From the IMG/VR virus record IMGVR_UViG_3300039412_000320: a DNA stretch of 64,000 nt, one strand, 5' to 3'. Position numbers and translations under genes: made by a program. The notes under the pieces were generated by a model that saw nothing but the letters and a program-made list of their open reading frames with translations, was not told the DNA's origin and ran no database searches. The number at the start of each line of letters is the position of its first letter. Position 1 is the first letter of the stretch. Below, piece after piece: positions 9,673 to 63,839 of the stretch. The stretch comes from a virus.

Positions 9673-9687
9673 AGGGTATTATATCCT

Positions 9688-10389: not shown

Positions 10390-10448
10390 GATACTATATT
10401 TCCCCACAGAAAAGAAACTTCCCATTGTATTGGTAGGGGGAAAATTAA

Positions 10449-11463: not shown

Positions 11464-13281
11464 ATGGGCGACCCTTCTATTGTCATTGAGCAGAATAAGG
11501 AAAGAAGTCTTCCGTTCAAGGAACTCAATACAGAGGCATCCCCTCAAATCCGGGACCACTTCCCCTTTCCGACCATCCGGGCATCGCAGGAGGTAGCTCT
11601 TCAGGTGATAGAAAGGGCTATCAAGGAAGGCAAGAAATACATCATAATGGAACTCCCGTGCGGGGTCGGGAAATCCGGGATTAGTGTTGCGGCTGGCTCC
11701 CTTGCCAAGACCTTCAAAACGCCAGCAGGATACCAGCAGGGGGCATACGTGCTTTCCCCGCAAAAGGTCCTCACAGAACAGTATGTTAATGACTTCGGTG
11801 ATATGGGCCTTGTTGAGCTTAAAGGAAAGGCCAACTACACCTGCCCCGGATATACTTGGGAAGAGACGGGCGAGCTTATGAACTGCGAGGACGCCGCTTT
11901 TAACTACGAAGAGCAGCACAAGGAGGTAGGGGGATGCGGGGGATATAAGCCCGCCAAAGAGGCATTTGTCAACAGTCCACTCGGAGTCACCAACTTTGCC
12001 TATTACCTAAGCGAGACAGCCCACGCCAGTCAGCTTAAGCCCCGTACCATGTTAATTTTAGACGAAGCTCATAATACAGAACAGCACATTCTCTCCCTTG
12101 CCAGTATTGAGATAACCCGATATCGCTGTGAGGAAGCAAGTCTTGATTTTAGCTCCGTACCCTTTATCACGCCCGATGCCGTGGGCATAGGAGAAGCCCT
12201 TGACTGGCTTAACCAGACATTCCGTCCTGCCGCTACAGAAGCCATCCAAAGACTCAGCTTTAACGCCGAGGAACGCCGGGATATGGGAATGCAGAAGGAA
12301 GCTTCAAAGCTTAAGCGGCGGGCAAGCGGCATGGAGAGATTCATCGGACAGCTTGACTTGTTTCTTAAGTCGGAGAACCGCAAGGATTGGATGGTATGGT
12401 CGGAGTCGGAAATCGAGAGGTGCCCCCAGTGCTGTGTGAAGCAAAAATACTCAGGGAAGAAGGAGTGCTGGAAGTGCCACAGCAGGCTCCCCCTGACCCC
12501 GGCAAAGATGATTATCAAGCCACTGACGGCTACCTTGTTCGCCGAGCCGGCCTTGTTCAGCAAGGCGGACAAGGTTATAATGTTGTCCGCCACTATCCTT
12601 GACTTCAATACTTTTTTGCGTAACCTTGGAATCAACCGAAATGACGCTGTATGCGTGGCGGTCCCGAGTGAGTTCCCGGTATGCAACCGCCCCATTTACT
12701 ACCGCCCAGTAGGGAACATGAACTACGGAAACATTGAGGCAACTCTTCCCAAGATGGCGGAGGAAGTGGGTAGGATAATGCGGAAGTACCCCAACAACAA
12801 GGGTATCGTGCATTGCGTGAGCTTCCGAGTGACTAATTACCTTATAAAGTACTTGACAGAAGGAGGGCTTGGCGGACGCATCCTTACCCATTCGGGAGAA
12901 GATACTGGGTCAAGGGAAAGGGTGGTGGAGGAGCATATTGCTTCGTCTTCTCCCTCAGTACTCTTTAGCCCAAGTCTGTCAGAGGGGCTGGATCTCAAGG
13001 AGGACCTGTCAAGGTTCCAGGTTATAGTCAAGATTCCCTATAAGGCATTAGACGTGTATGTCAAGGCACGGATGGCGCTTGATATGGACTGGTATAACCT
13101 ACAGGCGGCAATCTCGCTTGTCCAAGCGACGGGAAGGTCGGTAAGGTCGATGACTGATAGGGCAGACACCTACATCCTTGATTCCGGGTTTGAATCATTC
13201 ATAAAGCGAGCGGGGCATATGCTGCCAGAATGGTGGGTGGAGGCAGTAAAATTTCCCGGTGAATATACGATTGATTGGTAG
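11464..13281 (+). CDS. Rad3/XPD/DinG-family DEAH-box DNA helicase
   Basis: 'RASQ', Walker A 'ELPCGVGKSG', 'LILDEAHN', CxxC...CxxC insert and motif VI 'QATGRSVRS'. Confidence 0.75.
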   Translation: MGDPSIVIEQNKERSLPFKELNTEASPQIRDHFPFPTIRASQEVALQVIERAIKEGKKYIIMELPCGVGKSGISVAAGSLAKTFKTPAGYQQGAYVLSPQKVLTEQYVNDFGDMGLVELKGKANYTCPGYTWEETGELMNCEDAAFNYEEQHKEVGGCGGYKPAKEAFVNSPLGVTNFAYYLSETAHASQLKPRTMLILDEAHNTEQHILSLASIEITRYRCEEASLDFSSVPFITPDAVGIGEALDWLNQTFRPAATEAIQRLSFNAEERRDMGMQKEASKLKRRASGMERFIGQLDLFLKSENRKDWMVWSESEIERCPQCCVKQKYSGKKECWKCHSRLPLTPAKMIIKPLTATLFAEPALFSKADKVIMLSATILDFNTFLRNLGINRNDAVCVAVPSEFPVCNRPIYYRPVGNMNYGNIEATLPKMAEEVGRIMRKYPNNKGIVHCVSFRVTNYLIKYLTEGGLGGRILTHSGEDTGSRERVVEEHIASSSPSVLFSPSLSEGLDLKEDLSRFQVIVKIPYKALDVYVKARMALDMDWYNLQAAISLVQATGRSVRSMTDRADTYILDSGFESFIKRAGHMLPEWWVEAVKFPGEYTIDW

Positions 13282-13290
13282 ATACCAATA

Positions 13291-13312
13291 AGGATATAAA
13301 TCTATCCTTGTA
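13291..13312 (+). terminator. 7-bp stem hairpin AAGGATA-taaatc-TATCCTT followed by a weak T-rich tract, then a class B-like promoter
   Basis: Read directly downstream of the helicase stop. Confidence 0.3.
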
Positions 13313-13339
13313 TTCAATTGTACTGGAGGAAGTCAAACC

Positions 13340-13798
13340 ATGAAAACCATCAAAATGACCCGCACCATCCGTAGAGAGATTAACGGGATGTTCATAACCA
13401 TAGGACCGGAGGGTCTCACCTTTCGGCAGAAGCGCCAGCCGAAAGAGGATACACTCCGTCTGACGTGGGAACAGGCACTTGCAAATGCGGTTGTCGAAGA
13501 ACAAAACAGACCTACCCCGCTTGTTGAAATCAAGCCGGTACCTGACGACCCGGCACAGGTTCCCATGTTCCCCGAGCTTTCTCAACCCCTGACGAATGCT
13601 CACTTGACAGGATTCAAGCGGCTCCTACCTGAGTACGACATCCCGGCTTGCGGCCCGGAGGTTGGGGTTCACATGACGCACTGCAACATGGGAGGGTATG
13701 TTGGGGTGTGTAAGTATGGCGAGCATGACACCTGTCCCGCTCTGGAGACCCCCAAAATCGACGTGGACGAGGTTCTCAGTACCGAAGGAGACGTATGA
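13340..13798 (+). CDS. hypothetical protein
   Basis: ORF with SD 'GGAGGAAG' upstream; its stop overlaps the next start. Confidence 0.5.
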   Translation: MKTIKMTRTIRREINGMFITIGPEGLTFRQKRQPKEDTLRLTWEQALANAVVEEQNRPTPLVEIKPVPDDPAQVPMFPELSQPLTNAHLTGFKRLLPEYDIPACGPEVGVHMTHCNMGGYVGVCKYGEHDTCPALETPKIDVDEVLSTEGDV

Positions 13799-14094
13799 AG
13801 GAAAAGACTCCACTAGAAAAAGCGCAGGAGAAGGTTGTCTATATCCATGTCGCCCTCACCCTCAACGTTGACGAGGGGTCCGAGGTCTACATGCGCCCAC
13901 ATAACCCCTTCTTCGAGTTCAGCAATGACTTCTTCAAGCGGCTCCAGAACCAAATGAAAACCCGTTTGAAGTTTGCAGAAATGGGGATAGAGGACTTCAC
14001 TGCCGTGGAGACATTCGTCATGATGGTCCTCGGAGAATCCGAAGTACGCAGTATTGGAATACCAGAGGGTAAACCATGTCCGAAGAAAAAATGA
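13795..14094 (+). CDS. hypothetical protein
   Basis: ATGA start/stop overlap with neighbours. Confidence 0.45.
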   Translation: MKEKTPLEKAQEKVVYIHVALTLNVDEGSEVYMRPHNPFFEFSNDFFKRLQNQMKTRLKFAEMGIEDFTAVETFVMMVLGESEVRSIGIPEGKPCPKKK

Positions 14095-14318
14095 CCGATT
14101 GCGTTGACATTGACCATCCCCTGCCATGGGAAACACACCCCTGCGGGTGTGTGGTGGACGGCAACTACCAGATTGTGCAGGAGTGCCCGGACCCCGGCTG
14201 CATGACGAAGGCATACCTCGTCAACGCCGGGGGTTGTCACGTGTGCGGAGCGGCGGATACACGGGCGGTACAGGCGAAGGCTCAGAGGGAGCCGGTGAAG
14301 AAAGAATACGTGAACTGA
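14076..14318 (+). CDS. hypothetical Cys-rich small protein
   Basis: 'CGCVVDGNYQIVQECPDPGC...CHVCG'. Confidence 0.45.
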   Translation: MSEEKMTDCVDIDHPLPWETHPCGCVVDGNYQIVQECPDPGCMTKAYLVNAGGCHVCGAADTRAVQAKAQREPVKKEYVN

Positions 14319-14611
14319 TGCGTAGGTCCCGCCCGAGGTATCCAAAGCCGCAGGAAGTGCTGTCCTACAAGACGGCTCTGGAGCAGACCATCCCCGTGGA
14401 TACGCCCATGGTGATGGGCTGGAGGGAAAGTGCCAAGCTTATCCCTAACTGGCGCTTTCAGGGCCTCACAGGGGGCGTAGAATGGGTTGTAGACGTATAC
14501 TGTGGAGGTTACTGCTACGTTTCCGTGGGTAGGTACAACGAACGGGTTAAGTCCATAATGGCCGCTTTGAAATTTCTGCGTGCCCACCTTGCGGCAAGGG
14601 GAGTATTGTGA
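14318..14611 (+). CDS. hypothetical protein
   Basis: ATG at 14318 overlaps the TGA of the upstream gene; the upstream part of the tracked ORF 14126-14611 overlaps another gene out of frame. Confidence 0.4.
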   Translation: MRRSRPRYPKPQEVLSYKTALEQTIPVDTPMVMGWRESAKLIPNWRFQGLTGGVEWVVDVYCGGYCYVSVGRYNERVKSIMAALKFLRAHLAARGVL

Positions 14612-14645
14612 TATCCAGTTTTGAAACTATAGCACTCTATAGTGA

Positions 14646-15215
14646 ATGGAAACAAAGGAGTGCTGTATGCGAACCTTGGCTAGTGAAAAAAAGATAATTT
14701 CTCCCGGCACAAAGATGGGAATGCTTACCGTTTTGGGCTTGGTTGAGGGGAAAACATCCTTTGGGTATAGGGTTTATCGCTGTCAATGTGATTGTGGAAA
14801 AATGGTAGAGAGGGGAAGCGGGAGGCTCCGTGATTTCCGGTGTCGTGTAAGTTGTGGAAATCACTGGCATAGACCTCTTGGTGCGGCTGCGGCTCACGTT
14901 GTTTATTTGAATTACCAAACGAATGCTAAGCGTAGGGGGCATGTATTTGAGTTATCGGAGGACGAGTTTTTAGCGGTCTGTGAGCAGGATTGTCACTATT
15001 GCGGGGCTAAACCCAAGAGCGGAAACTGGAAGCACTTTAAGCGGTGCTTCGGGGATTTTTCATATAATGGTATAGATAGGAAGGATAACTCTTTGGGGTA
15101 CATCATAGGAAATTGTCTTCCTTGCTGTGGGACGTGCAATTACTCCAAGAGGGGACTGTCTTATCAAGAATACATAAGTCAGTGTCAAAGGGTTGCAATC
15201 CTTCACCCTTGCTAG
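14646..15215 (+). CDS. HNH homing endonuclease
   Basis: 'CHYCGAKP...YNGIDRKDNSLGYIIGNCLPCCGTCNYSK'. Confidence 0.8.
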   Translation: METKECCMRTLASEKKIISPGTKMGMLTVLGLVEGKTSFGYRVYRCQCDCGKMVERGSGRLRDFRCRVSCGNHWHRPLGAAAAHVVYLNYQTNAKRRGHVFELSEDEFLAVCEQDCHYCGAKPKSGNWKHFKRCFGDFSYNGIDRKDNSLGYIIGNCLPCCGTCNYSKRGLSYQEYISQCQRVAILHPC

Positions 15216-15236
15216 TGGATTTTGGTATTATATAAT

Positions 15237-15968
15237 ATGATAAAAAGCTCAAATACAGCTAATGGCACCCCTCCAGTTTTAGTTCCTCTTTCCACGTTAG
15301 AAGACTTAAAGAGAGTACTCTTCGTGCAAAAAACTATTGCACAGGAATGTCGCCGGGAGTTGATAGCGACCGCCACGGCGAAAGAGATTGCCACGGGCGA
15401 GGTATCCGCCCCGGAGGAAATGCGCCGGATAATCAAGGCGCAGACCGCCCTGCTGGAGAAGTACGCCAAATATCCCACCCTGTCGGAGTTCATGTTCCAC
15501 CCCGACCTTGCCGGGTCCACCCGGTGGGGAGCGACCTTTGGGGTGACTATCCTCGTCCGGGCGCTCATCCTTGACCCCATCAAAGCAGCTATGCAGGCGT
15601 TTGCTCCCTTCATGCGGAGTATCTACCTTCTGCTCATTAAAGAGTTAGACAACCCTACCCACGAGTATCTTATCGAGCCATTGGAAGAGAACATCAAGTT
15701 CCGGGTAACTATGGGCGAGAACGGTGAGGAAATCACCGACGAGCGCAGCACTCTGCTCACCCGTAAGCTCCTTTACCAAGTCACGGAAAGCCTGTTGATG
15801 ATAAGTGCCCAGTACGGCATCATTGGAGCCACGCCGGGAGGGTTCCAGATAACTGATATGGGTCGCCGGGTTTTACTCCATCTTGTTGACTCTTCAGTTT
15901 TTTTAGAAGAACTTGTGGAGGCCCACAAACGTTTTCAATCTGAAAAGCCGAAACTTAATTTTATATGA
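15237..15968 (+). CDS. hypothetical protein
   Basis: ATG directly after 'GGTATTATATAAT' (class B -10-like, no SD). Confidence 0.45.
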   Translation: MIKSSNTANGTPPVLVPLSTLEDLKRVLFVQKTIAQECRRELIATATAKEIATGEVSAPEEMRRIIKAQTALLEKYAKYPTLSEFMFHPDLAGSTRWGATFGVTILVRALILDPIKAAMQAFAPFMRSIYLLLIKELDNPTHEYLIEPLEENIKFRVTMGENGEEITDERSTLLTRKLLYQVTESLLMISAQYGIIGATPGGFQITDMGRRVLLHLVDSSVFLEELVEAHKRFQSEKPKLNFI

Positions 15969-26753: not shown

Positions 26754-27059
26754 GTGGCTCTTTTTATTTTACTGTTTTTGGTCCTTGTAGTTCTTAATAT
26801 CTCTGATGGGATAACTACCTATATGGGACTTAAGAAAACGGAAAATGAGGAGGTAAACCCCATTGCATCTTGGTTGATGTGTAAAATCGGCAGTATTCCT
26901 GGAATTATTGTGGTGAAGGTCTTAGCCTTAAGCACCATTGCGGCTGGGATTTTCATTGTCGGTGTGAGGGGTGCCCCAGGGGTGGATATCACACTTTCTA
27001 TCCTGATAGCAGTTTACATTTGGGTTGTCGTTCATAACATCAAGGTTATTTACAAATGA
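26754..27059 (+). CDS. small integral membrane protein (3 predicted TM helices)
   Basis: Hydrophobic segments; stop/start overlap (ATGA) with the next gene. Confidence 0.5.
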   Translation: MALFILLFLVLVVLNISDGITTYMGLKKTENEEVNPIASWLMCKIGSIPGIIVVKVLALSTIAAGIFIVGVRGAPGVDITLSILIAVYIWVVVHNIKVIYK

Positions 27060-29326
27060 AACTATCCGGTAAGAATTTTCAACCATGGAAAGATTTCTCC
27101 CTTATTGTGGACGGGTTGACATTGATTGTCGGACCGTCGAATAAGGGTAAGTGTCTTGCTCCAAATACTCCTGTTCTTATGTATGACGGGACAAATAAAT
27201 TAGCAAAGAACATAGGTGTAGGTGACTTTCTTATGGGGCCGGATAGCACGCCTCGCACCGTTCTTAGTATTTCCCACGGGTTTGATGATATGTATGAGGT
27301 TTTGCCCAATAAAGGGGGCTTCGATGGTTCTTGGGGGTGTAATCAGTATCACATTTTGTCCTTGATTTGCCGATTAGATGGAAAAAAACGTCGTCTCAGT
27401 CCCTTACAGTTAAGACAATGCAGGGTGGAGATTTCAGTTAAGGACTTTCTTTCCAAAAGTGCTACCTATAAACGGAATGCCCGTTTGCATCGTTCGGGAG
27501 GTATAGATTTTAAGTGCCGGGTAGATAAAAAATTTGAACCTTATTTGGTGGGCTATTGGCTTGGCGATGGTACCACCGATTTACATAAATTAGAAGTAAC
27601 AACCGCCGACCTTGAGGTTGTAAACTATTGTCGAAAACTTGCCACCAAGTATGGTCTCCATCTTATACCCAATGATGATGATTCCTACCGATTTTCTACT
27701 AAACATAAAGGAAGTCGAAGTAATGCCCTTCTTAACCGTTTCCGGTTGTTAAAGTTGGTGGATGCAGACGGAAAATGCATACCACATAGCTATCTGGTTG
27801 GCTCAAGGGAAGATAGACTTTTACTATTGGCTGGGTTGCTAGATTCTGATGCTGGATTAGAACCGTCTCAATTTGCCTTTTGTTCGCAGTTTGAGCGACT
27901 TGCTAAACAAGTGGCATTTTTAGCGAGGTCTCTCGGGTTTAGGGCATCTATTTCTCCTAAGTTAAACAAACGATACAATAAGATATACCATACGGTTTTA
28001 ATTTTCGGGAATTTGCCTAGTATTCCTACTATCATAAAGCGAAAAAAGGCATTATCGCAATCCAAAAAATCTTGTTTAACAACGGGGTTTAAAATAAAGC
28101 ATAAAGGGTGGGGAGAATATTTCGGATTTGAGTTGAGCGGGGATGGGCTTTTTCTTCTTGGTGATTTTACTATAACTCATAATAGCTCCATCTTCCGTGC
28201 CCTGCGGGGGGTATTCCGCAATGAACTCCCGCAGGATTTTGTCCGTAATGGACAGGATGAGAAGATGGAAGTGACTCTTGAGGTTGAGGGTGTCAACGAC
28301 CCCATCAGGGCCACCCGGACCCGCAAGGGTTCCACCAAGTACGCCATTGGTGAAGATGAAAAGGGTAAGCCGATAGAGTATAAGGCTCTCGGCGATAGTG
28401 TCCCCGAACCCATGAAGGTGCTCAAGTATGGCACCGTCAAAGTGGGGGACACAACCATAGACCCCATCTTTTCTCAACAGAACAAGGCACAATTCCTCAT
28501 TGACCCCGACGCATGGAAGCCCAACGACCTGAATGCCATCCTTGGGGCCTTTGCCTCTACCGAAAAATTGGATGCAGGGAAGAAGGAAGCCAACCGGCGC
28601 ATTACCGAAAAGAACGGGGAAGCCCGAACGCTCGCCGAAGAAATCCGTGAGGCAGAGGAACGCCGGGGTAAACTTGAGAGGTTTAATGCCTCGGCACAGG
28701 ACTCCGCCCACACCGTGTCTGGTTATGAGGCAAAGGTCAACAGCTATGAGTCATTGTTGGCCTCGCTGACCGAGACACTTACAAGGACGAATCGGATAGC
28801 GAAGATGCGGTCCTTCATCCTCAAGCTGTCTGTGCCGGATGTATCCCCCATTGAGAAACAGGAGCGCCTCGCCCGGATGTATGCCGAGGCGGTAAAAATC
28901 CTCCGTCGCCGGGAAGTCACGGGACAGGTGGTACATGGCATTGACAATACTATAGTCCAGTGGGACCTTGTGGCTAAGGGGTACAAACGCAAGCAGGCGG
29001 TTCTATCCCTGTTGGAAATTGTCGAAAGAAAGGGAGCAAGCCCCAAGGAGTGCGGGGAGAAGTTAGAGGGTGTGCTACAAGAAGCCAACTTCCTACTCGG
29101 AGTCATTGCTCACTACCTCTCGGCGCTTAAGAACATCAACTTGTTGGCAGAGGCATTGAAGCTCCCCAGCAAGAAGAGTGAGCTTAAGTTTACGGAAGAG
29201 GAACTGGACGCCGCTAACGCCAAGGTTAACTCTTTGACGTTGCTTCTGTCCAAGGAATCCAAACCGAAATGCCCGGACTGTGGTACGGAGCTATGCTGCC
29301 CGTCTTGTCAACCGGAATCGAGGTAG
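27056..29326 (+). CDS. SMC/SbcC/RecF-family P-loop ATPase N-terminal half + coiled coil, interrupted by an intein
   Basis: Extein 'MKLSGKNF..LTLIVGPSNKGK|SSIFRALRGVF' gives an SbcC/gp46-like N-terminus; long coiled coil; ends 'CPDCGTELCCPSCQ'; no signature/Walker B region. Confidence 0.55.
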   Translation: MKLSGKNFQPWKDFSLIVDGLTLIVGPSNKGKCLAPNTPVLMYDGTNKLAKNIGVGDFLMGPDSTPRTVLSISHGFDDMYEVLPNKGGFDGSWGCNQYHILSLICRLDGKKRRLSPLQLRQCRVEISVKDFLSKSATYKRNARLHRSGGIDFKCRVDKKFEPYLVGYWLGDGTTDLHKLEVTTADLEVVNYCRKLATKYGLHLIPNDDDSYRFSTKHKGSRSNALLNRFRLLKLVDADGKCIPHSYLVGSREDRLLLLAGLLDSDAGLEPSQFAFCSQFERLAKQVAFLARSLGFRASISPKLNKRYNKIYHTVLIFGNLPSIPTIIKRKKALSQSKKSCLTTGFKIKHKGWGEYFGFELSGDGLFLLGDFTITHNSSIFRALRGVFRNELPQDFVRNGQDEKMEVTLEVEGVNDPIRATRTRKGSTKYAIGEDEKGKPIEYKALGDSVPEPMKVLKYGTVKVGDTTIDPIFSQQNKAQFLIDPDAWKPNDLNAILGAFASTEKLDAGKKEANRRITEKNGEARTLAEEIREAEERRGKLERFNASAQDSAHTVSGYEAKVNSYESLLASLTETLTRTNRIAKMRSFILKLSVPDVSPIEKQERLARMYAEAVKILRRREVTGQVVHGIDNTIVQWDLVAKGYKRKQAVLSLLEIVERKGASPKECGEKLEGVLQEANFLLGVIAHYLSALKNINLLAEALKLPSKKSELKFTEEELDAANAKVNSLTLLLSKESKPKCPDCGTELCCPSCQPESR
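27152..28183 (+). mobile_element. Intein (344 aa) with LAGLIDADG homing endonuclease domain inserted in the Walker A P-loop
   Basis: Begins 'CLAPNTPVLMYDG', ends 'ITHN' followed by Ser; DOD motifs 'LVGYWLGDGT' and 'LLAGLLDSDAG'. Confidence 0.8.
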
Positions 29327-35791: not shown

Positions 35792-37945
35792 ATGGTTGAA
35801 AAGAAAACTACGACGACCCCCAAGAGCGTGTTGGTTAAGAGGGAACGGGGAGCCAATTTGCGTGTGGGGACCACCGAAATAAAGCGAAAGGTTGCTGCCA
35901 GCAAGGGTGGTAAGCAATACGCCTCCGCAGGCCCCCGGACCAGTATGACGAACGACGGAATGATTGCCGACGTTCTGGTTAGCCGGGTCCGCCAGATGGC
36001 GACCCAAGGCTCTCCCTTTGGGGCGCAGGGATGGGGGATGTACGAACTTACCCGCAACAAGACCGCCGCTCTGTTCAGTGATGGCACCCTCGGCAATGCC
36101 GACATCGCCGACAGCAACAACATTGGTTACTACAGCTACGAGTTTCCCGTAGACGCCCTCGAACTGCCAGCCAGCCGGGCGGAAGAACTCCGGTTCTATC
36201 GGCTTGCCTATGACCGGGACCCCATCGTCGGACGTGCTATCGACATGCACACCGAGCTTCCCCTGTCCAAGTGGGCATTAGAAAAGCCCAAGTGTTCCAG
36301 TGATGACTTTGCCGACTACGTTTACGACTTCTATCAGGGACTCATCAGCGGCACCAAGTTCTTTCAGGTTTTGATTCAGGCAGTCCGGGAGTATTGGACT
36401 ATCGGAGAGGCTTTCATCTTTATTCAGGAAGCCGAACCCGTTGAACCTTCCAAGCTGGCAAAGGCTCAGTTAGAAAAAGCGAAGGCTAAGAATAAGCAGC
36501 ATTCTAATTCTCAGTCCACCGAGCCGGGCATGGAAGGTGAAGGCTCCATGATGGGCGGTACATCGGATGCCATCTTGGACTTCCTCCAGCCTGAGAAGCG
36601 TTCAAGTTGGCTTAGAAAGAAATCCGCTGTTATCTGTGAAATCAAGAAGGCAGGCATTAAGTTCAATCTCTTCGCCCCCGATGAAACCATTGCCAACGTC
36701 AAGAATGAAATCCGCAAGAAGAAAATCAGCTACACAAAGAAAGCGGTCAGCATTAAGAGCTTCATCAAGCTGGCTATGGACAATAAAGAATCTAAACTCA
36801 TCTCCCGTGATGATGCTGACGATGACTACCCTATTCAGGTAAAGGTCGCCGCTCCTCCTGATGCGGGCGCACCCCCACCCGCTGGTGGAGAGGGAGCGCC
36901 GATGGGAGACGCCGGGTTGGAAGGCGTTGCTGGTGTAGACCCCATGGGAGAACCCGGTGGAGACCTTCCTCCCGGTGACTTGGGTGGAGATTTAGGTGGA
37001 GATTTAGGTGGAGGCGGTGGGCTTCCCCCTATGGGAGGCGGTGGTGGAGGGGGAATGCCTCCCGAGCCGACGACCCCCGGCGACCAAGTGGGTGCGGTGC
37101 AGAATGCCATTGCCCAAGGGTCAACCCTCGCCAAGCAAAAGGAGCTTCTCGAACTCAAACGCATCATCAAACTGTTGGAGAAAAAGAAGCAGGTTTTGGA
37201 GGAGTTGCAGGAAATCCGTGAGAAGCGTAAGGAAGAAGAGGAGCTTTTCTCCCACTTGGAGAATAAAGACTACGAGGGCTTTGATGCCATCAATGTCCTT
37301 CCTCCCGAGCAGATAGAGCTTGAGGCCGGGGACAGCATGACAGCCGGGCCGACCGTATACTATAAACCGCTCGAAAAGCAGAAAACCGCATACCTTGAAG
37401 ACCCCGAGGTCGATTCCGAAGTCAAGGGTATGTTGGAAGCGGACGGCAAAGTTGCTTTGAACAAGGACCCCTTCGAGGGTTCTTACGTCATCCACTTCGC
37501 CCGCAAGAAGAGTGACTACGAGCTTCACGGTCGTTCTATCCTCCAGCGTTGTATCCGCACAGTCATCTACCGTGAAAAGCTGCGGCAAGTGCAGTCCACG
37601 TTGGCGTCTCGTAACATGACGCCCAAGACGTTAGTCATTGCTCCTGACATCCCGCCCGCCGAAGTTATGGCTCTTCGTGCGCACATTGACGAAGCCAAGG
37701 CCGACCCGGACTACAGCGTCGTGTTGAACTATGAGGCCCGGTGGGATGAAATTGGTTCAGATGGTAGGTTGCTATCTCTGGATGGAGAATGGCAGCACAC
37801 CAACTCTGACCTGTCTATTGGTCTTGGATTCAGCCCGGAAATCCTCATCGGTGAAGGACTCTATTCCGGCAACAAAGTCCAGTGGTCTCGCACAGTGTAC
37901 GTGGTTAATCGGGACGGAGACTTTGGACTAATTGAGTGCCCTTAA
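35792..37945 (+). CDS. putative portal or other virion structural protein with Gly/acidic-rich disordered segment
   Basis: 717 aa; 'FYRLAYDRDPIVGRAIDMHTELPLSKW'; '(GDLG)n GGGGG' tract; class A-like motif at 35766-35787. Confidence 0.35.
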   Translation: MVEKKTTTTPKSVLVKRERGANLRVGTTEIKRKVAASKGGKQYASAGPRTSMTNDGMIADVLVSRVRQMATQGSPFGAQGWGMYELTRNKTAALFSDGTLGNADIADSNNIGYYSYEFPVDALELPASRAEELRFYRLAYDRDPIVGRAIDMHTELPLSKWALEKPKCSSDDFADYVYDFYQGLISGTKFFQVLIQAVREYWTIGEAFIFIQEAEPVEPSKLAKAQLEKAKAKNKQHSNSQSTEPGMEGEGSMMGGTSDAILDFLQPEKRSSWLRKKSAVICEIKKAGIKFNLFAPDETIANVKNEIRKKKISYTKKAVSIKSFIKLAMDNKESKLISRDDADDDYPIQVKVAAPPDAGAPPPAGGEGAPMGDAGLEGVAGVDPMGEPGGDLPPGDLGGDLGGDLGGGGGLPPMGGGGGGGMPPEPTTPGDQVGAVQNAIAQGSTLAKQKELLELKRIIKLLEKKKQVLEELQEIREKRKEEEELFSHLENKDYEGFDAINVLPPEQIELEAGDSMTAGPTVYYKPLEKQKTAYLEDPEVDSEVKGMLEADGKVALNKDPFEGSYVIHFARKKSDYELHGRSILQRCIRTVIYREKLRQVQSTLASRNMTPKTLVIAPDIPPAEVMALRAHIDEAKADPDYSVVLNYEARWDEIGSDGRLLSLDGEWQHTNSDLSIGLGFSPEILIGEGLYSGNKVQWSRTVYVVNRDGDFGLIECP

Positions 37946-54569: not shown

Positions 54570-54636
54570 TTCTTTAGCCATTTGATTAAGAAAATCAAAT
54601 ATGGAATATATTAGTAATGGGAGGAATATACAACGA

Positions 54637-55425
54637 ATGCACAAATTTATAGATATGAGAAATAGACCAGAGTTATTGCCCCAAGATTGTATATGGATTG
54701 TTTTAAGTGATTCACCTCAAGGTGGAGGGAAGAGGGGTAAGCCGTATAAGTGGTATTGTCAGTGTTCTGGGTGTGGGGTTAAACGCTGGATTGTGGGGTT
54801 GAATTTACGTTCTGGTAGAACACTAGGTTGTAGACGATGCTGGGGTAAGCGGATGTCTCAAAGGCAGCTTATTGATATGAGGATTCAGCCGTTACCCCCA
54901 GAGTGTCCTTGGGAAATTTTGGATGAACCTCCTAAAACTATCCAACAGCAACGAGGTAAGGCATATCTTTGGCACGCACGATGCCGCATTCATGGAGTGA
55001 AGTCTTGGATTCGTATAAGGAAAGACAGGAACAGCGGTTGTTACCTTTGCGGGCGGCATCTTCAATCTTTAGGTCGTCAGAAACGGCCCCTTGAGTGGAT
55101 GATAGCGCAAATTCGTAGAAGTAAAAAATGGGAGGGATTAACTTATGAGGAACTTGTTACTATAACCGAATCTAAAACATGCCACTATTGTGATGAACCC
55201 CTAATTTGGAATGCTTTATCCCATAAGGGATGTGGGGCGAACAATAGGACAAACCTTGATAGGAAAGACTCTTCAATTGGATATCGAAAAGATAACTTGG
55301 TTCCGTGCTGCCCTAAATGCAATTGCGGAAAATCAAACCGGTTTACATATGAACAGTGGGTAGAAATTGGACAACTCATAAAGGCAATGAGAGAACACCA
55401 CCCCTATACATTTACTCCCGCTTAG
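54637..55425 (+). CDS. HNH homing endonuclease with N-terminal repeated Cys modules
   Basis: 'CHYCDEPLIW...NNRTNLDRKDSSIGYRKDNLVPCCPKCNCGK'; SD GGGAGG before ATG 54637. Confidence 0.7.
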   Translation: MHKFIDMRNRPELLPQDCIWIVLSDSPQGGGKRGKPYKWYCQCSGCGVKRWIVGLNLRSGRTLGCRRCWGKRMSQRQLIDMRIQPLPPECPWEILDEPPKTIQQQRGKAYLWHARCRIHGVKSWIRIRKDRNSGCYLCGRHLQSLGRQKRPLEWMIAQIRRSKKWEGLTYEELVTITESKTCHYCDEPLIWNALSHKGCGANNRTNLDRKDSSIGYRKDNLVPCCPKCNCGKSNRFTYEQWVEIGQLIKAMREHHPYTFTPA

Positions 55426-56945: not shown

Positions 56946-58103
56946 TTATTGTTCTTCTTTTTGATTTATAATACCACTAATTTGGTGGTCCCATCTAGTC
57001 TGGGGCCATCGTAAGCGTTTAGCCCTTGCCATAGAAGAACATTTTCTGCAAACGCTCCCCCGCTCCTCCATTTGTTTGCATAACCAAGCATATTTATAGT
57101 GCAAAGAAACACCACAAACCGGGCAGTGGCGTTCCGTTTTAGTATATAAGGGGGCACATCTATTCTTTGCCGCACAACTACCACACAGCCCGTTAGTCTT
57201 ATCAGCTATTTTACAGTGGTACTTATTCTTATAGATTAGTCTTTTTTTACATTGGGGACAAAGGCGGGATTTTATGTTTGGCGATACCGGGCTACCATCT
57301 GGCGAATATCCGGTACGGGCATGAATCAAGTCCCCATTTTGGTACGCCGGGTCTGTCACTCTTACTCGTTTGTAGACACCATCTTTATCTATTGTTAGAA
57401 CATATCCTTTGTTTACATGGGTGAGTTCCCCGGTTATCAGCCGTGGGTCATCACAGGTGGTATCAATCACAATCCCAGCCTTGTCCTTCGTTGTTATTCT
57501 GCCCTTTCGTACATGCACTAACTCCCCGGACAAATATCGAGGGTCATCTTTTCTTACTTTGAAGCGGTTTCCGAGAGAGTCTTTAACATTGACCGTGTAT
57601 CTCGCAAAGTGCGTTAGGCTACCGTCTTTAAGGCGGGGGTCATTTGTTTCTACATGGTATATATCCCCATTTTTATCCTTTGCGGCAACCTTTCCTCTCA
57701 TTGTTTTACCGCACTGGTCCTTAACCACACTAACCGCCCTTTCGTACTCTTGAAGATATTCGTCTTCTATTTTAATCTTTCCCATTTTGCTCATCATTTT
57801 CCATGCATAGGCGGTAGCTTGGCATTTGACGGCCCTGAATAAAAGGTAGTGAGCCTTGAAGTGGTCAAATGGGCTTATTTTAACTGAATTCCACGGATGA
57901 CCGACTCTACTCTTGTATTCCGGGAACATAGATTTAGGGAGGATGTGGTGCCAGTTTCCTTTTTCTCTTTCTGGTAGTTTTGACTTTTGGATGTGGTCTA
58001 AGTATGCCCAAAAGGCGTCTCGGTCAACCATCGGATATCGTTCTATAAATATGTCTATGAGTTCCTTCATTGGGAATCCTCTAATAAGGAGTTCGGTAAT
58101 CAT
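56946..58103 (-). CDS. HNH-like homing endonuclease with four tandem 'DPRLxxGxLxH' repeats and C-terminal Zn fingers
   Basis: 'NWHHILPKS...N...FDHFKAH'; repeats 'DPRLKDGSLTHFARYT', 'DPRYLSGELVHVRKG', 'DPRLITGELTHVNKG', 'DPAYQNGDLIHARTG'; 'CPQCKK...CGSC', 'CPVCG...CRKC'. Confidence 0.45.
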   Translation of the reverse strand: MITELLIRGFPMKELIDIFIERYPMVDRDAFWAYLDHIQKSKLPEREKGNWHHILPKSMFPEYKSRVGHPWNSVKISPFDHFKAHYLLFRAVKCQATAYAWKMMSKMGKIKIEDEYLQEYERAVSVVKDQCGKTMRGKVAAKDKNGDIYHVETNDPRLKDGSLTHFARYTVNVKDSLGNRFKVRKDDPRYLSGELVHVRKGRITTKDKAGIVIDTTCDDPRLITGELTHVNKGYVLTIDKDGVYKRVRVTDPAYQNGDLIHARTGYSPDGSPVSPNIKSRLCPQCKKRLIYKNKYHCKIADKTNGLCGSCAAKNRCAPLYTKTERHCPVCGVSLHYKYAWLCKQMEERGSVCRKCSSMARAKRLRWPQTRWDHQISGIINQKEEQ

Positions 58104-58130
58104 TTAATACCCGTTTACCGCAAGTTGCTC

Positions 58131-59279
58131 ATGGAATCTGAAAAGAAATTAATTCAAGCCAAGCTTTCGCAGATGCATACTACCGAATTTCGGGGTATGC
58201 CCATTCTGATTGAGTGGCCAGCGGGGTTGGAGCGTGTCGGTACTGATGAAGACGGCAAGACGTGGCGAAGGAAAATGCACTTCGATTATGGGCATTTTAT
58301 CGGTGTAAATGGTAAAGATGATGAAGGATTGGACTGCTATATAGGCCCCTACCCTCACTCTGATAAAGTTTATATAGTAGAACAATTGAAGGCTAATGGG
58401 GAGACCCCGGATGAATTTAAAGTGATGCTGGGATTTGATACATTAGAACATGCTCAGCAGGCGTATCTTGTCCACTACCCTAAAGGATGGGAAGAAGAAA
58501 GGCTGGGGGACGTGTTTGAGACAGACCTTGGTTCTCTCCGCACTAAAGTGGAGGAGCATCAAGAAGGGGATGAGGACAGGAAAAAGACAGCAACACTTAA
58601 AAAGTTTGATACTGGGGAAGTTGCATTCGAGGAGCAAGGAGTTGAGATATACATTTTACCCTTAAACCCTAAGAAGTTACGTCGGGGTGAACCTCATGCT
58701 ATGTGGACGGTACAGGTTTTGGATGAGGAGAATCGTTTTGCTATGACTTATCGGTCGAACATAATCGACCCCGAAGATATCATCAAGCGTCAGTTGAAGA
58801 ATTATCTGCCTATACGGGGGACAGTGACAAGCTGGACCAAGGATGATGTTTGGCTCCGTGAATGGAAATCTACACACAAGGAGAATAAAATGGGTAGTTT
58901 GAACAAGACAGAGGGACTTTTGGAGAAAATAAAAGGGACAGAATATGACATGGCAGGGTCAAAGCTTTCAGGTTTCTGGCATGACGGCCCAGCGACCTGC
59001 ATGGACTGCCGCCACAGGACACCCCACTCCAAGAATGCCGAGGGGGTAGAAGTAGACTCCTGTAAGCATCCCGTGGTCATGGTAGACCCGGAGCTACAAG
59101 AAAAAAAGCTCCCGGACGGCACCATTGAGGTGGACGCCGACGACTGGTGCCGGTTTGCCCAGAAGCCGGTAAAAAAGGAAGAAAAGTCCGAACCGGCCAA
59201 ACCAGAAACCCCAGAAAAGCTTGAGAAAAAGCCAATGACCGGCTCCATCTACTTTAAGGTGCTGAACTCAATGAGATAA
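58131..59279 (+). CDS. hypothetical protein
   Basis: ATG 58131 (the track used an upstream TTG). Confidence 0.45.
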   Translation: MESEKKLIQAKLSQMHTTEFRGMPILIEWPAGLERVGTDEDGKTWRRKMHFDYGHFIGVNGKDDEGLDCYIGPYPHSDKVYIVEQLKANGETPDEFKVMLGFDTLEHAQQAYLVHYPKGWEEERLGDVFETDLGSLRTKVEEHQEGDEDRKKTATLKKFDTGEVAFEEQGVEIYILPLNPKKLRRGEPHAMWTVQVLDEENRFAMTYRSNIIDPEDIIKRQLKNYLPIRGTVTSWTKDDVWLREWKSTHKENKMGSLNKTEGLLEKIKGTEYDMAGSKLSGFWHDGPATCMDCRHRTPHSKNAEGVEVDSCKHPVVMVDPELQEKKLPDGTIEVDADDWCRFAQKPVKKEEKSEPAKPETPEKLEKKPMTGSIYFKVLNSMR

Positions 59280-59651: not shown

Positions 59652-60503
59652 ATGTTCATATACCTTATCGCTAATCACATCACAGGAAAATACTACATCG
59701 GTCAGCATAAGGGTAGAGACCTCCGCAAATATCTTCACAAAAAATTTTGGGAAGCGGAACATGGTTTAGGCGGGTCCTCCCATCTTTACGCCGCTATAAG
59801 AAAATATGGAAGAAGTAGTTTCAGCATTCATGCTCTCCGTTCGGATATCCAAACAAAAGAAGAGTTAGACCAAGTCGAAAAGGATTTTATTATTTTTCTA
59901 AAAGCCCAAGACCCTGAATATGGTTACAACATCCGTCGAGGAGGAGAGGGATTTACCTCAGAAGAAGCAAAGGAAATTGCCAAAAATCGACTAGCCGACC
60001 CCACATTTATTACCAGATTAACTATGGCGTTGAAAGAAGCATGGAAAGACCCTGAAACTCAAGCCAAACATTCCGAGTCTATCAAAAAATTATGGCAAGA
60101 TTCGGAGTTCCGTGACAAAGTTGTTAAAAAACTGAGGAGCCCAGAAGTAAGAGATAGAAAATCTAAGGCTAATAGGAAAAGATTTTCTACTTATGAGGCT
60201 CGTACTAAACAAGCCAAAGCAGTAAATGCGGGGTGGTCTGATTTAGAGCTTCGCACCAGACAATCTGAGTTAGTTAAGAAGCTATGGTCAGACCCCCAAA
60301 CTCGATATAAAATGATGGAGGGGGTTAAGAAACGAGCAGCTACCATAAGTTTGAATGGTAAAAAAACTATGTCCAAGCCAGGACACCTGTCTTATATGAC
60401 TAAAAAAGGGCATTGCCAACGCTGGAACATCAACCGTGGCAAACCTTGTACCTGCGGATATCATCCTTTGCTTATGCTCAAGGTAAATGAGAGAACCACT
60501 TAA
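59652..60503 (+). CDS. GIY-YIG homing endonuclease (paralog family A) with C-terminal C..W.I.RGKPC.CG.H module
   Basis: 'MFIYLIANHITGKYYIGQHKG'; 'CQRWNINRGKPCTCGYH'; class A motif at 59631-59646. Confidence 0.8.
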   Translation: MFIYLIANHITGKYYIGQHKGRDLRKYLHKKFWEAEHGLGGSSHLYAAIRKYGRSSFSIHALRSDIQTKEELDQVEKDFIIFLKAQDPEYGYNIRRGGEGFTSEEAKEIAKNRLADPTFITRLTMALKEAWKDPETQAKHSESIKKLWQDSEFRDKVVKKLRSPEVRDRKSKANRKRFSTYEARTKQAKAVNAGWSDLELRTRQSELVKKLWSDPQTRYKMMEGVKKRAATISLNGKKTMSKPGHLSYMTKKGHCQRWNINRGKPCTCGYHPLLMLKVNERTT

Positions 60504-60581: not shown

Positions 60582-63500
60582 ATGAGTTCACTCAATCCAT
60601 TGCTTCAACCGACAGCCGGGGCATCCGGGGAAGCGCCCCCCATGACAGTTCGTTTGGAAATCCATGATTCCCACCGAGGAGAGCTTTCCGGCAGGGTAGA
60701 AGCTTGGCTGGAGGGTGGCGGGGTATGGGCGACCGGTCCAGACGGCAAGGAGACCCAACAGGGAACACGTATTGGCTACGTGGACTTTTCGGAGTACGAT
60801 AACGAAATTTGGATAAAGTACGTTCATGTTCAGCCGGAATACCGTCGCCGTGGTGTGGCGACCGCCATGTACGAGAAGCTCAAGGCAGAGTTTCCCGGTG
60901 AGCAAATTGTTAGCAGCGGCACCACGGGAGAGGGTGGGGAACTTAGGAAGTCTTTGAAGGAGCGGGGAGTCATTGCCGCCGATGAGGCTTTGGACTACGG
61001 AGAGGTCATCAATGTGCTTCACAGCCTCATGCCGGATGTGGACCCCAGCCTCCCGGAGCCACAAATCAGGATTGCCGACTATACCCGCTCCAAGTGGCTA
61101 GGCCGGACCGAGTGGCGGCACGGGGAACCCAATACCACTATCGTCCTTCAAAAAGCCATTTGTCATGATGAGGAGACCCTCCGCCGTATCATTGCCCACG
61201 AGCTTGTACACCACGAACAGATGCTTAAGGTGTGGTCAACCTACCCCGGAGGAAAGGTCTTCGATAGGATAGTGAGAATCGAAGGTGGGCATGGTGGGGT
61301 CTTTAAGGAGATAGCCAACCGTTGGAACGCCAAACACGGCAAAGACTTCATCACAAATAAATCTGATGAGAGTTACGAGAAACAGTTTACCGAGCGTCCC
61401 TTCTTTGTTTTAGTCTCTCGTACTAGCTGGGGTTCTCCCCGTTGGCAGGCGTCTATCCGCATTTCTGGCAAACAGAAAATATGGATGAGCGGCAAGAACA
61501 TGGAAGAGTACCGGCTGACTCAGACCACCGACCAAGATTTCGTTGATGCCCCTAATATTGGTTCTAGGCATTGGGAGTACCCCCACAAGGATAACCATGG
61601 TTTGATTCTCGCTGCCGAGGCATTGATGAAAATGCCAGACCTCCGTTTGCAATGGGATGAAAAGCCCCCGGCAAGTGTTGCCGAGGAGCGTGCCAAGAGG
61701 CAGGAGATTTATGAGAAAATGAGGGAGTGGTCTCGGTCCCGGCGACAGAAGAAAACCGAGAAGTGGTTTCAAGACCTCAAAGACAGGTCGGATGCTTACC
61801 AGCAAAGTAAGGCATCCGCTGTGAATACTCAGCCCACTCCCGAGGTCTTGGATGAGGCTCGTGCTCTGCGCACGGAGTTGCGCATGGGGGATACCACCGC
61901 CGTGAGGGGTCAGGGTAACTGCGGATTCATTGCTGACTCCGCTTCTAAAAAGTATGGTTGGGATGTTTATGCCGGGCTGTACTTGGAAGACAACGGCAAG
62001 CAAATCGACCATGTTTGGAACGTCTCGGAAGACGGAACCATCATAGACATCACCCATGACCAGTTTGGACCACCCGATATCAACGTGGTCAAGCCCGGTC
62101 AGCCGGGGTACGATGACTACCACGCTTACTGCTGGCAGTATCTCCCAGAGGATGAAGCGAACGCCTGTCCCATCTGTGGTAATGGAGTAGTGAACGAGGA
62201 GTCCCAGCCTGATGAAGATATGGAAGAACTGAAAAAGACTTCCTCTCAGAAGGTGGGGTTGGATGCTATCAGGAAACAGGCAAGGGTGAGTCAAAATCTC
62301 ACTTGGCTAGTCAACTATCTCACCATGAGCAGGCGGGATATGGGTGAGGGATATTCACTATCGGATGAGTATGTCAGGCGGTATGATGAGCTTAATGACC
62401 GCTATGGGATAACATGGAAAGACAGCTTTCGATATATGGAAACGGTAAGACAGAAACAGCCGATAAGCGTCAACCAAATTGAGAAGATTGACATAGTAGA
62501 CAAGTCTATAAAAACAGCAGACTCCCACAAGCAGACGCCCCATAGGGAGAATGACTTCGAGAGCTTGAGTGAAGGCGAGGGGCTAGAGGGATACGCTAAC
62601 CAACCGGAATGCGAGGGTGGTAATAAGGCGATTATTCCTATGAACGTTCTGGAGGAGCAGGCCAAGCTTACGATGACCGCCTCTCCTGTTGCTCACTTCC
62701 CGTCGTGGGATGAGTTCGTTAAGAAAGAAGGCGGGATTGAGAAGATTGTCAATGGGTTTGGCTCCAGTTGGGACCAGTGGGAACCCTATGACCGGGCGGA
62801 GACGGAAGCTTTCGATGCTCTGGAGCAGAAGGAGCAACAGGAATATCTGGAGCGTCGGGCCTATGAAGATTTGGAGAACCGGTACTATGATGTTCTTGGC
62901 GACCACTCCATGTGGTCCTTCCCATTGGATGTCTACCGGGTAGTTACCCTCAAAGACATCAGGGGATTAAAGCGCCGGGGTATCGGGGTTTTCTGGTCAC
63001 GGGATGAAAATGCCGCCGAAGCACACTGGGGAAACTTTGGACCGGGGTATCAGAAATACATCATTCATGCACAAGTGCAGGAGCAGGATGTTGACTGGGA
63101 GGCAACCGTCTGGGTGAACCTTGACCCCTCCCTTGGAGAAGAGGAAAAGGAGATACGCTTAAAGGAGGGAACACACCCGCAGATACTCGGTTGGAAGGGA
63201 ACCAGTGAAAATTCATGGCATCAACCCCCGGCAGCTTGGAAGAATGTAACCGCTTCTTCCTCGTGGGTTATCCCCAAGGAAGCCGCCACGGTGGGGTATG
63301 TCTATCATGTGACCTATGCCAACCGACTTGAGGATATCATCTGGCAGGGGTTGGAACCCGGTCATCCCCCGGTCATCGGTGAGAATTACGGTTGGCACAC
63401 TGAGGGGCGTATTTTCTTCTCTGACCCACGGGGCGTGGGGTTCTGGGTCAGTAGAGTGGAGGAGTGGGCTTACCACAACTCAGATAGCCCCGTTTCTGAT

Positions 63501-63839
63501 GGCATGATTCCCGTAGTCTTGCGCATCAAGGAGTACAAACGTTACGGGTTTGAGGAAGATGAATATGGAACGGGTGATGCTGGTGCCGAAGCCTTCTTTA
63601 CCCAAAAGACCATCCCCGCCAGTCGGATAGAGATGTGGGATGGAAAGGTCTGGCGCAAACTCAATGAGGATTTGCTTGAGGAACTTGGCCTTGTACGCTT
63701 TGGCATGAATGAACCTGACCCATCTTGGGACCTTAACGGAACATTGAGGGAAAAGCAGGAAGAGAAGGCAGAGAAAGAGGGGTACTTGGATGAGCAATTT
63801 GGTCCTTTAATGAATCCTAGGTTTTCTAATGAAAGTTAA
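60582..63839 (+). CDS. 1085-aa polyvalent protein: GNAT acetyltransferase-like N-domain + HExxH metallopeptidase-like + Cys-protease/transglutaminase-like segment + large C-terminal region
   Basis: 'IWIKYVHVQPEYRRRGVATAMYEKL' (GNAT motif A); 'RRIIAHELVHHEQ'; 'GQGNCGFIADSA...DHVWN'. Confidence 0.45.
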   Translation: MSSLNPLLQPTAGASGEAPPMTVRLEIHDSHRGELSGRVEAWLEGGGVWATGPDGKETQQGTRIGYVDFSEYDNEIWIKYVHVQPEYRRRGVATAMYEKLKAEFPGEQIVSSGTTGEGGELRKSLKERGVIAADEALDYGEVINVLHSLMPDVDPSLPEPQIRIADYTRSKWLGRTEWRHGEPNTTIVLQKAICHDEETLRRIIAHELVHHEQMLKVWSTYPGGKVFDRIVRIEGGHGGVFKEIANRWNAKHGKDFITNKSDESYEKQFTERPFFVLVSRTSWGSPRWQASIRISGKQKIWMSGKNMEEYRLTQTTDQDFVDAPNIGSRHWEYPHKDNHGLILAAEALMKMPDLRLQWDEKPPASVAEERAKRQEIYEKMREWSRSRRQKKTEKWFQDLKDRSDAYQQSKASAVNTQPTPEVLDEARALRTELRMGDTTAVRGQGNCGFIADSASKKYGWDVYAGLYLEDNGKQIDHVWNVSEDGTIIDITHDQFGPPDINVVKPGQPGYDDYHAYCWQYLPEDEANACPICGNGVVNEESQPDEDMEELKKTSSQKVGLDAIRKQARVSQNLTWLVNYLTMSRRDMGEGYSLSDEYVRRYDELNDRYGITWKDSFRYMETVRQKQPISVNQIEKIDIVDKSIKTADSHKQTPHRENDFESLSEGEGLEGYANQPECEGGNKAIIPMNVLEEQAKLTMTASPVAHFPSWDEFVKKEGGIEKIVNGFGSSWDQWEPYDRAETEAFDALEQKEQQEYLERRAYEDLENRYYDVLGDHSMWSFPLDVYRVVTLKDIRGLKRRGIGVFWSRDENAAEAHWGNFGPGYQKYIIHAQVQEQDVDWEATVWVNLDPSLGEEEKEIRLKEGTHPQILGWKGTSENSWHQPPAAWKNVTASSSWVIPKEAATVGYVYHVTYANRLEDIIWQGLEPGHPPVIGENYGWHTEGRIFFSDPRGVGFWVSRVEEWAYHNSDSPVSDGMIPVVLRIKEYKRYGFEEDEYGTGDAGAEAFFTQKTIPASRIEMWDGKVWRKLNEDLLEELGLVRFGMNEPDPSWDLNGTLREKQEEKAEKEGYLDEQFGPLMNPRFSNES

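Follow-up and report, generated by a model that had tools for sequence, protein, structure and literature searches.

A protein of 1085 amino acids (aa), encoded near the end of a 64,000-nt stretch of the IMG/VR virus record IMGVR_UViG_3300039412_000320 (the whole stretch is called the window below), is in our judgement probably an effector of the polyvalent type from an uncultured jumbo phage, i.e. a single chain of several independent enzyme modules that would be packaged, injected, act early in infection and be cleaved into its parts. The ATG-started open reading frame (ORF) spans positions 60582 to 63839 on the + strand, its stop codon ending at 63839. Both its position and its length are exactly those of a preliminary description of the same DNA, and all motifs quoted there could be located (RRRGVA, aa 88–93; HELVH, aa 206–210; GNCGF, aa 445–449; DHVWN, aa 476–480). 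That description had recognised a multi-domain phage protein of the polyvalent type. The GNAT, SprT-like zincin and ADP-ribosyltransferase (ART)-type modules reported here (Table 1), together with links to the polyvalent domain network, bear this out. Some 500 C-terminal residues had been left unassigned. The standard libraries are indeed empty in this region (no match in Pfam, PHROGs or NCBIfam over aa ~520–1085), but two putative modules of ART or ART-like fold, termed M5 and M6, had been missed.

With aa 545–1085 as query, HMMER retrieved 1144 representative proteins at E ≤ 0.001, which resolve into separable M5 and M6 families. M5 occurs in up to four copies per protein in proteins of 1,000–5,000 aa and also on its own (~160–240 aa), and M6 is found in giant proteins as well as in many stand-alone proteins of ~160–200 aa; among the small stand-alone proteins, 71 have M6 only and 15 have M5 only. 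A word-indexed homolog search with the C-terminal half gave two matches, and tblastn against 50,697 GenBank phages gave none with any of three probes (M5 plus M6 of the 1085-aa protein, a stand-alone M5 and a stand-alone M6). Neither family is represented in Pfam, PHROGs or NCBIfam. In this study both were found in metagenomes only, and as far as tested all relatives come from uncultured sources. The relative P0011 (482 aa, M6 and M5), encoded on a 2-kb contig, carries the NCBI label of a Thermoplasmata archaeon metagenome-assembled genome; the gene is probably viral rather than archaeal, on a fragment that was binned with an archaeal genome.

The key residues of M5 are Arg786, Ser806 and Glu855-x-Glu857. 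Both Arg786 and Glu855 are invariant (95/95 each), Glu857 is retained in 92/95, and position 806 is occupied by Ser or Thr in 70/95 and by Ala in 24/95. In the structural model the Arg lies on beta1, the Ser/Thr at the end of beta2 and the E-x-E at the start of beta5 following a loop, and the strands match those of the R-S-E clade. The best structural matches were the CARDS toxin (4tlv), pertussis toxin S1, heat-labile enterotoxin A, ArtA and the Rhs toxin TreX. The model is consistent with an ART split beta-sheet fold of the R-S-E (cholera toxin-like) clade. It has to be weighed against this assignment that the fold evidence from the model is not strong by score. Moreover, Pfam and PHROGs searches with 39 M5 members returned no family, which argues against membership in an ART family that has already been described.

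M6 is likely a His-type module of the ART superfamily, as suggested by weak profile matches and by residue conservation. The residues of note are His909 (100/102), Thr911 (nearly invariant), Phe945 (100/102; Phe, not Tyr), Asp968, Asp993 (101/102) and Asp999 (96/102). When two M6 profiles of 41 and 46 sequences were compared with the PDB, Tpt1/KptA alone was found (seven distinct sequences, E 0.0073–0.041), followed by DarT1 at 0.63; the match with Tpt1 is weak and covers ~30 aa of the beta1-alpha1 region alone. Sub-threshold Pfam matches among 46 M6 members were to DUF7002 (10), PTS_2-RNA (9), PARP (2), Tox-ART-HYE1, DarT and ART-PolyVal. M6 would represent a second undescribed ART-like family, of the His type, that is new relative to the literature. 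In 7/67 small proteins, compared with 0.06 expected, the motif of the acidic tail downstream of M6 falls in the final 30 aa, and its Pro is nearly invariant in stand-alone M6 proteins. According to hhalign, the probability of a relationship with the ART-PolyVal profile from the same protein set is 6% for M5 and 7% for M6, and that between M5 and M6 is 0.1%; therefore, we treat M5, M6 and ART-PolyVal as separate families. None of the 53 ART-PolyVal segments in this protein set overlaps M5 or M6 (0/53).

In the amino-terminal part, the proposed GNAT fold with a Q/R-x-x-G-x-A motif proved sound. Pfam Acetyltransf_1 scores 29.3 bits over aa 60–107 (cut-off 20.7), and the acetyl-CoA motif A (Q/R-x-x-G-x-G/A) corresponds to R88-R-R-G-V-A93 (60843–60860), which is conserved in the relatives P0002–P0005. 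The closest NCBIfam model is RimI, and the PDB sequence matches, RibT and AAC(3)-I, are both weak. At the sequence level, a minimal RimI-like GNAT acetyltransferase is confirmed. Likewise, the AHELVHHEQ site that had been regarded as zincin-like is, by sequence, that of a SprT-like zincin. The HELVH motif (61197–61211) is followed by a candidate third ligand, His237, in EGGHGG (61281–61298), and all 16 of 16 homologous modules retain H206, E207, H210 and H237 (GHG), among them the one in gp321 of the cultured jumbo phage Tunturi_5 (a Tunturiibacter phage). The Pfam scores of the 1085-aa protein (18.2), P0002 (18.7) and P0003 (24.8) are below the cut-off of 25.6, whereas P0004 (27.7) is above it. 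SprT-like peptidases have already been noted in jumbo phages (PMC7824862).

The third module had been described as a papain/transglutaminase-like dyad, GNCGF…DHVW. Both motifs are present, and Cys447 (GNCGF), His477 (DHVWN) and Asp489 (IIDIT) are invariant in the three available homologs, as is a zinc-knuckle-like H/C cluster, YHAYCW…CPICG (YHxYCW…CPxC, aa 514–532). A Cys at the amino terminus of a helix with His and then Asp on the following strands is the order seen in papain and transglutaminases. In an AlphaFold2 model built from three sequences, Cys447 caps a helix and His477 and Asp489 are located on the next two strands, albeit at low confidence (pLDDT 55.8). The family assignment fared less well. 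Pfam YunG matches the module in the 1085-aa protein, P0002 and P0004 with 15.5, 21.3 and 24.0 bits, all below the cut-off of 27 (best E 4.5e-5), a Foldseek search with the model yielded noise, and no peptidase was matched. Against PDB sequences, the profile of the module had unrelated matches and nothing of relevance, a word-indexed homolog search with the module alignment gave 0 matches, and a literature search for YunG turned up surnames alone. We consider a Cys-protease plausible but unproven. A serious, if rather doubtful, alternative is a structural or adaptor domain that binds zinc; Cys447 and His477 would then be metal ligands along with the H/C cluster, and not parts of a thiol hydrolase. 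Such a domain would suit the six invariant Cys/His residues within ~90 aa, the fact that no peptidase was matched significantly by profile or fold, and the conservation of the module within one small clade alone. On the other hand, the Cys-His-Asp order with spacings of 30 and 12 residues matches the papain/transglutaminase arrangement, and the three YunG matches cover this very region. Since the words papain, cysteine and transglutaminase are absent from the text of the survey of polyvalent proteins by Iyer et al. (PMC5512222) and no such module is listed there, the thiol or zinc module is new relative to that work.

Polyvalent proteins are recognised by at least two distinct effector-type domains per polypeptide, by their presence in a phage genome and by links to the polyvalent domain network. 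The 1085-aa protein combines GNAT, SprT-like zincin, M5 and M6; it is encoded alongside phage genes (portal, terminase-like, DNA polymerase, UvsX, tail fibre), with orthologs in genomes of 237 and 317 kb; and it is connected to the network through ART-PolyVal in 16/29 giant relatives and an InPase-domain neighbour in 4 loci. As far as sequence can tell, it would thus qualify as a polyvalent protein. The other Pfam domains in the 29 giant relatives are GNAT (13), SprT-like (7, at E ≤ 0.001), 2′-5′ RNA ligase/LigT (6), NUDIX (3), and ADPrib_exo_Tox, PARP, PTS_2-RNA, ParB_N and Acb1 (2 each), a repertoire centred on NAD+/ADP-ribose and nucleotide chemistry. ART-PolyVal reaches 38.8 bits in P0005, and the 1085-aa protein itself has no match to it. 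The earlier remark that the combination seemed not to have been described is weak as a claim of novelty, because the class is defined by combinatorial architectures and GNAT, zincin and ART combinations have been reported (Iyer et al. 2017, PMC5512222). A new combination is not remarkable in itself for polyvalent proteins.

The window is phage DNA. PHROGs identified a portal gene (35792–37942), a terminase-like gene (27056–29323), a tail-fibre gene (6454–8745), and genes for a DNA polymerase, a helicase and a UvsX-like recombinase. Among cultured phages, the terminase-like protein has distant relatives at best (≤ 35% identity). Relatives of the ORF reside on a 219-kb contig (L001) and in the two IMG/VR genomes mentioned above, and from these contig sizes the lineage is an uncultured jumbo phage.

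We propose that the modules, in the order GNAT, SprT-like zincin, Cys-His-Asp/Zn-knuckle, signature cassette (see below), M5 and M6, would act early in infection, probably after packaging and injection. This would be analogous to the polyvalent model and to T4 Alt, an R-S-E ADP-ribosyltransferase that is head-packaged and injected and that, as has been proposed, acts on host proteins as soon as infection starts (PMC5512222). The GNAT module would draw on acetyl-CoA, and M5 and M6 on NAD+, to acetylate or ADP-ribosylate host proteins or nucleic acids; with two putative modules of the ART type, the predicted chemistry shifts toward NAD+-dependent modification. Host-protein modification has been put forward as a role of polyvalent GNATs, and Rac of phage phiKMV, likewise a phage GNAT, has the alpha subunit of RNA polymerase as its acetylation target. 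The modules would be released by cuts at [V/I]-T-A↓S boundaries, made either by the zincin or by a maturation protease of the phage. Alternatively, the SprT-like zincin might attack host proteins.

Packaging and injection are inferred from the protein class, with indirect support from the InPase neighbour and from the position of gp321, the nearest cultured example found (PP885688.1; 37% identity in the SprT-like module). It is rather unlikely that the same domains instead form an early cytoplasmic polyprotein or a host-takeover enzyme active at its site of synthesis. Such a protein would fit the surroundings of the gene, which consist of homing-endonuclease-like genes and small genes of unknown function, well away from portal and terminase (the portal gene is 22.6 kb away). 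A MuF domain or portal fusion was looked for and none was found, and the existence of M5 and M6 as small stand-alone proteins implies that a giant carrier is not needed. However, giant modular architectures with repeated effector domains are a hallmark of the injected class, and the InPase domain, typical of phage polyvalent proteins, has been described as likely virion-packaged (Iyer et al. 2017, PMC5512222). In addition, gp321, a distant relative, is located within the structural module of Tunturi_5, between connector and tail genes.

A role in counter-defence or RNA repair, in which the NAD+ modules would not attack host proteins, seems unlikely, and a little more so. In this scenario the substrates of M6 would be ends or bases of nucleic acids, as for KptA/Tpt1 or DarT, and M6 would work together with partners of the 2H, NUDIX or Acb1 type against nucleotide-signalling or tRNA-cleaving defences. 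Tpt1/KptA and DarT are the sole detectable relatives of M6, relatives co-occur with 2_5_RNA_ligase2/LigT, NUDIX and Acb1, and KptA-2H systems of jumbo phages have been described (PMC9503650). Yet M6 resembles Tpt1 in the NAD-binding beta1-alpha1 region and not in the N-terminal lobe, the 1085-aa protein has no 2H, NUDIX or ligase module, and the nearest structures of M5 are protein-targeting toxins. Finally, a structural role in the virion (tape measure, tail or fibre) with incidental enzyme motifs, which the preliminary description had named among the findings that would overturn its reading, is effectively refuted and has a negligible probability: large size alone speaks for it, whereas PHROGs gives no structural family (acetyltransferase and unknown-function families only, over the GNAT region), Pfam detects GNAT, M5 has enzyme structures as matches, as many as 102 instances show invariant catalytic signatures and the tail-fibre gene of the window is located elsewhere.

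The encoding gene is a short allele. Long alleles, i.e. P0006 (1935 aa) and a 2053-aa ORF in two IMG/VR genomes, align with aa 1–589 at 79–92% identity and with aa ~598/645–1082 at 82–85%, and they carry ~750–840 extra residues in between, which comprise another M5 and two copies of a further module. The first ~35 aa of the junction match the start of another long-allele module, and all catalytic signatures are intact in the short allele. The gene is no assembly accident, as a near-identical protein (P0001, 100%-identity cluster) is encoded on an independent JGI contig. Because the N-terminal peptide MSSLNPLLQP is also kept in P0002 and P0004, the first ATG is probably the true start; the gene call for P0001, from one pipeline, has an alternative start 20 codons downstream. 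A general terminal signal NPLLxP was considered and rejected, the peptide being confined to few proteins.

The further module, which is absent from the 1085-aa protein, is located at aa ~640–840 and ~1000–1200 in P0006, at ~640–800 in P0003, and at 12838–15795 (aa ~60–250) in L001. It has the signature W-L-V-H-x-T-D … G-L-T-T-Y-F … Y-H-S-G-D-E-x-x-Q-V-I-F-W-G, and the H-x-T start suggests another ART-like domain. In L001 the orthologous gene is split into ORFs of 700 and 986 aa. A group I intron was rejected as the cause, since Rfam found none; instead, the split is explained by a 262-nt direct repeat with 99% identity (11823–12084 and 12641–12902, 818 nt apart), which may stem from faulty assembly or from a duplication of recent date.

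Two sequence features recur at the module boundaries. The first is the signature cassette, which reads KTA-DSHKQTPHREN...EGYANQPECEGG...LTMTA-S in the 1085-aa protein (with GYANQPEC) and has the consensus TA-[SD]-SHK-x-TP … N-A/G-Y-A-x-I/Q-P-E-x-V-x-G … TA-S. In an iterative search with hidden Markov models (HMM), 31 giant proteins had exactly one copy each (besides the 1085-aa protein, P0003, 845–906; P0004, 926–987; P0005, 291–352; and 27 others), at times at the extreme C-terminus. Pfam has no match to this stretch of ~60 aa, which might be a processing or packaging signal. The second feature is the conserved end of M5, W-K-N-V-T-A↓S in the 1085-aa protein (NVTASS, aa 888–893, 63243–63260) and almost always W-x-x-[V/I]-T-A-[S/A] in the family. 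In 57 giant proteins the motif [VILM]TA[SA], which marks module boundaries, was observed 92 times, compared with 10.4 ± 3.2 in shuffled sequences. The M5 tail is unstructured in the model, and proteins in which M5 is the last domain stop 0–5 residues past it. This pattern suggests proteolytic processing at T-A↓S. The boundaries resemble the (V/L/I)-x-A↓S sites of assemblin-type proteases. Cleavage at T-A↓S would fit a maturation protease or the proposal that zincins process polyvalent proteins (Iyer et al., PMC5512222).

From these elements a more daring idea can be formed, which we put forward tentatively and hold to be improbable as a whole. M5 and M6 would be two abundant metagenome-only ART families, one of them R-S-ExE, that build giant "ART-array" effectors of jumbo phages. 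These effectors would bear a maturation or packaging code consisting of the single-copy ~60-aa SHK-TP…NAYAxIPE cassette and of [V/I]-T-A↓S sites cut after delivery. If true, the polyvalent concept would come to include an ART clade that it was said to lack, and a testable processing rule would follow.

The InPase gene is conserved in L001, L002 and the more distant L006 besides the window, and in these three loci it is followed by the giant protein and then by ART-PolyVal, NUDIX, 2′-5′ RNA ligase-like and GNAT proteins. The InPase protein has a ~240-aa C-terminal extension with Cys/His clusters (CMDCRH…SCKH…DDWCRF) that matches no family. Past the window end, as seen in L002 from the copy of the same phage, a 463-aa protein with a paralogous M6 (HMM E 2.6e-14) is encoded two genes downstream (9237–10628), and a GNAT-like 346-aa protein and a protein of >1500 aa with a weak NTP_transf_2 match lie farther on; thus, the 1085-aa ORF heads an array of effector-like genes. 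Probable homing-endonuclease genes are clustered just upstream (59652–60503, 54601–55425 and 56946–58103). A GIY-YIG-like motif stands at the start of the 283-aa ORF among them, whose positional counterpart in L001 matches PF01541; the other two have Cys-rich C-termini that by eye look HNH-like. Pfam found nothing significant in the window copies of these ORFs. In another part of the window, a 1222-aa fusion ORF (2749–6417) contains beta-1,4-glycosyltransferase-like (PHROG E 3e-55) and DNA methyltransferase-like (E 6e-18) regions.

Table 1. Features of the 1085-aa ORF and its neighbour, in window coordinates.
Feature	Residues	Position	Strand	Basis
Complete ORF, probable polyvalent multi-enzyme protein, short allele	1–1085	60582..63839	+	1085 aa + stop
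Conserved N-terminal peptide LNPLLQP		60591..60611	+	same N-terminus in P0002, P0004
GNAT acetyltransferase module	21–135	60642..60986	+	Pfam PF00583
SprT-like zincin metallopeptidase module	137–345	60990..61616	+	Pfam PF10263, HExxH
Charged spacer, probably helical	346–420	61617..61841	+	sequence composition; no family match
Cys-His-Asp module with C-terminal Zn-knuckle-like H/C cluster	421–545	61842..62216	+	residue conservation
Short helical segment and deletion junction	555–644	62244..62513	+	blastp vs P0003, P0006, P0015
Single-copy signature cassette	642–703	62505..62690	+	iterative HMM search
M5, putative helical subdomain and ART-fold core, R-S-ExE type	699–895	62676..63266	+	
M6, probable ART-superfamily module, H-x-T type	899–1038	63276..63695	+	weak profile matches and residue conservation
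Acidic C-terminal tail with conserved …P-L-x-x-P… end	1039–1085	63696..63836	+	same tail on stand-alone M6 proteins
InPase-domain neighbour protein		58125..59279	+	Pfam PF18823, E 1.1e-34; two genes upstream of the 1085-aa ORF

Multi-enzyme proteins that phages deliver are believed to act within the first minutes, when they would disarm the host or reprogram it, and most of their domains are uncharacterised. In the case presented here, a stretch invisible to Pfam, PHROGs and NCBIfam appears to hold two ART-type modules with intact catalytic signatures and more than 1000 representative relatives. This makes M5 and M6 candidates for NAD+-dependent host-modifying or counter-defence enzymes, and the R-S-ExE type has not previously been listed in polyvalent proteins. 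Since the protein class is already known, the finding is an extension and not a new principle, with a specific hypothesis on how the polyprotein may be cut.

In comparison with the polyvalent proteins of Iyer et al. (PMC5512222), the 1085-aa protein is likewise a large phage-encoded chain with a zincin-like peptidase, a GNAT and ART-type modules, next to an InPase gene and with modules that are shuffled and repeated among relatives. It differs from them in that it lacks ART-PolyVal, MuF and ArdC-N, in that its zincin scores as SprT-like, and in that its ART-type modules fall into non-Pfam families. Its zincin has in common with SprT, Spartan and Wss1 the HExxH motif and a His ~27 residues further on in G-H-G-x-x-F/W, but it stays under the Pfam cut-off and is embedded in a giant effector protein. 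The GNAT module shares motif A with RimI-like GNATs and phiKMV Rac, RimI being the closest model, although it is very short (~115 aa) and matches the central part of the profile alone. T4 Alt is, as M5 would be, a phage ART with an Arg/Ser/Glu active site; however, Alt is a single-domain enzyme of the Alt/VIP2 clade in which no sequence similarity to M5 was detected, and the nearest structures of M5 are toxins of the cholera, pertussis and CARDS type. With the ART toxins of the cholera toxin group, M5 shares the layout of Arg on beta1, Ser/Thr on beta2 and E-x-E on beta5. M6, in turn, has the beta1-alpha1 NAD-binding signature L-Y-H-x-T…L-x-S-I…G-L-x-P in common with Tpt1/KptA and DarT, but the match extends over ~30 residues (E ~0.01), no match to the N-terminal lobe of Tpt1 was seen, and the aromatic residue is Phe in place of Tyr.

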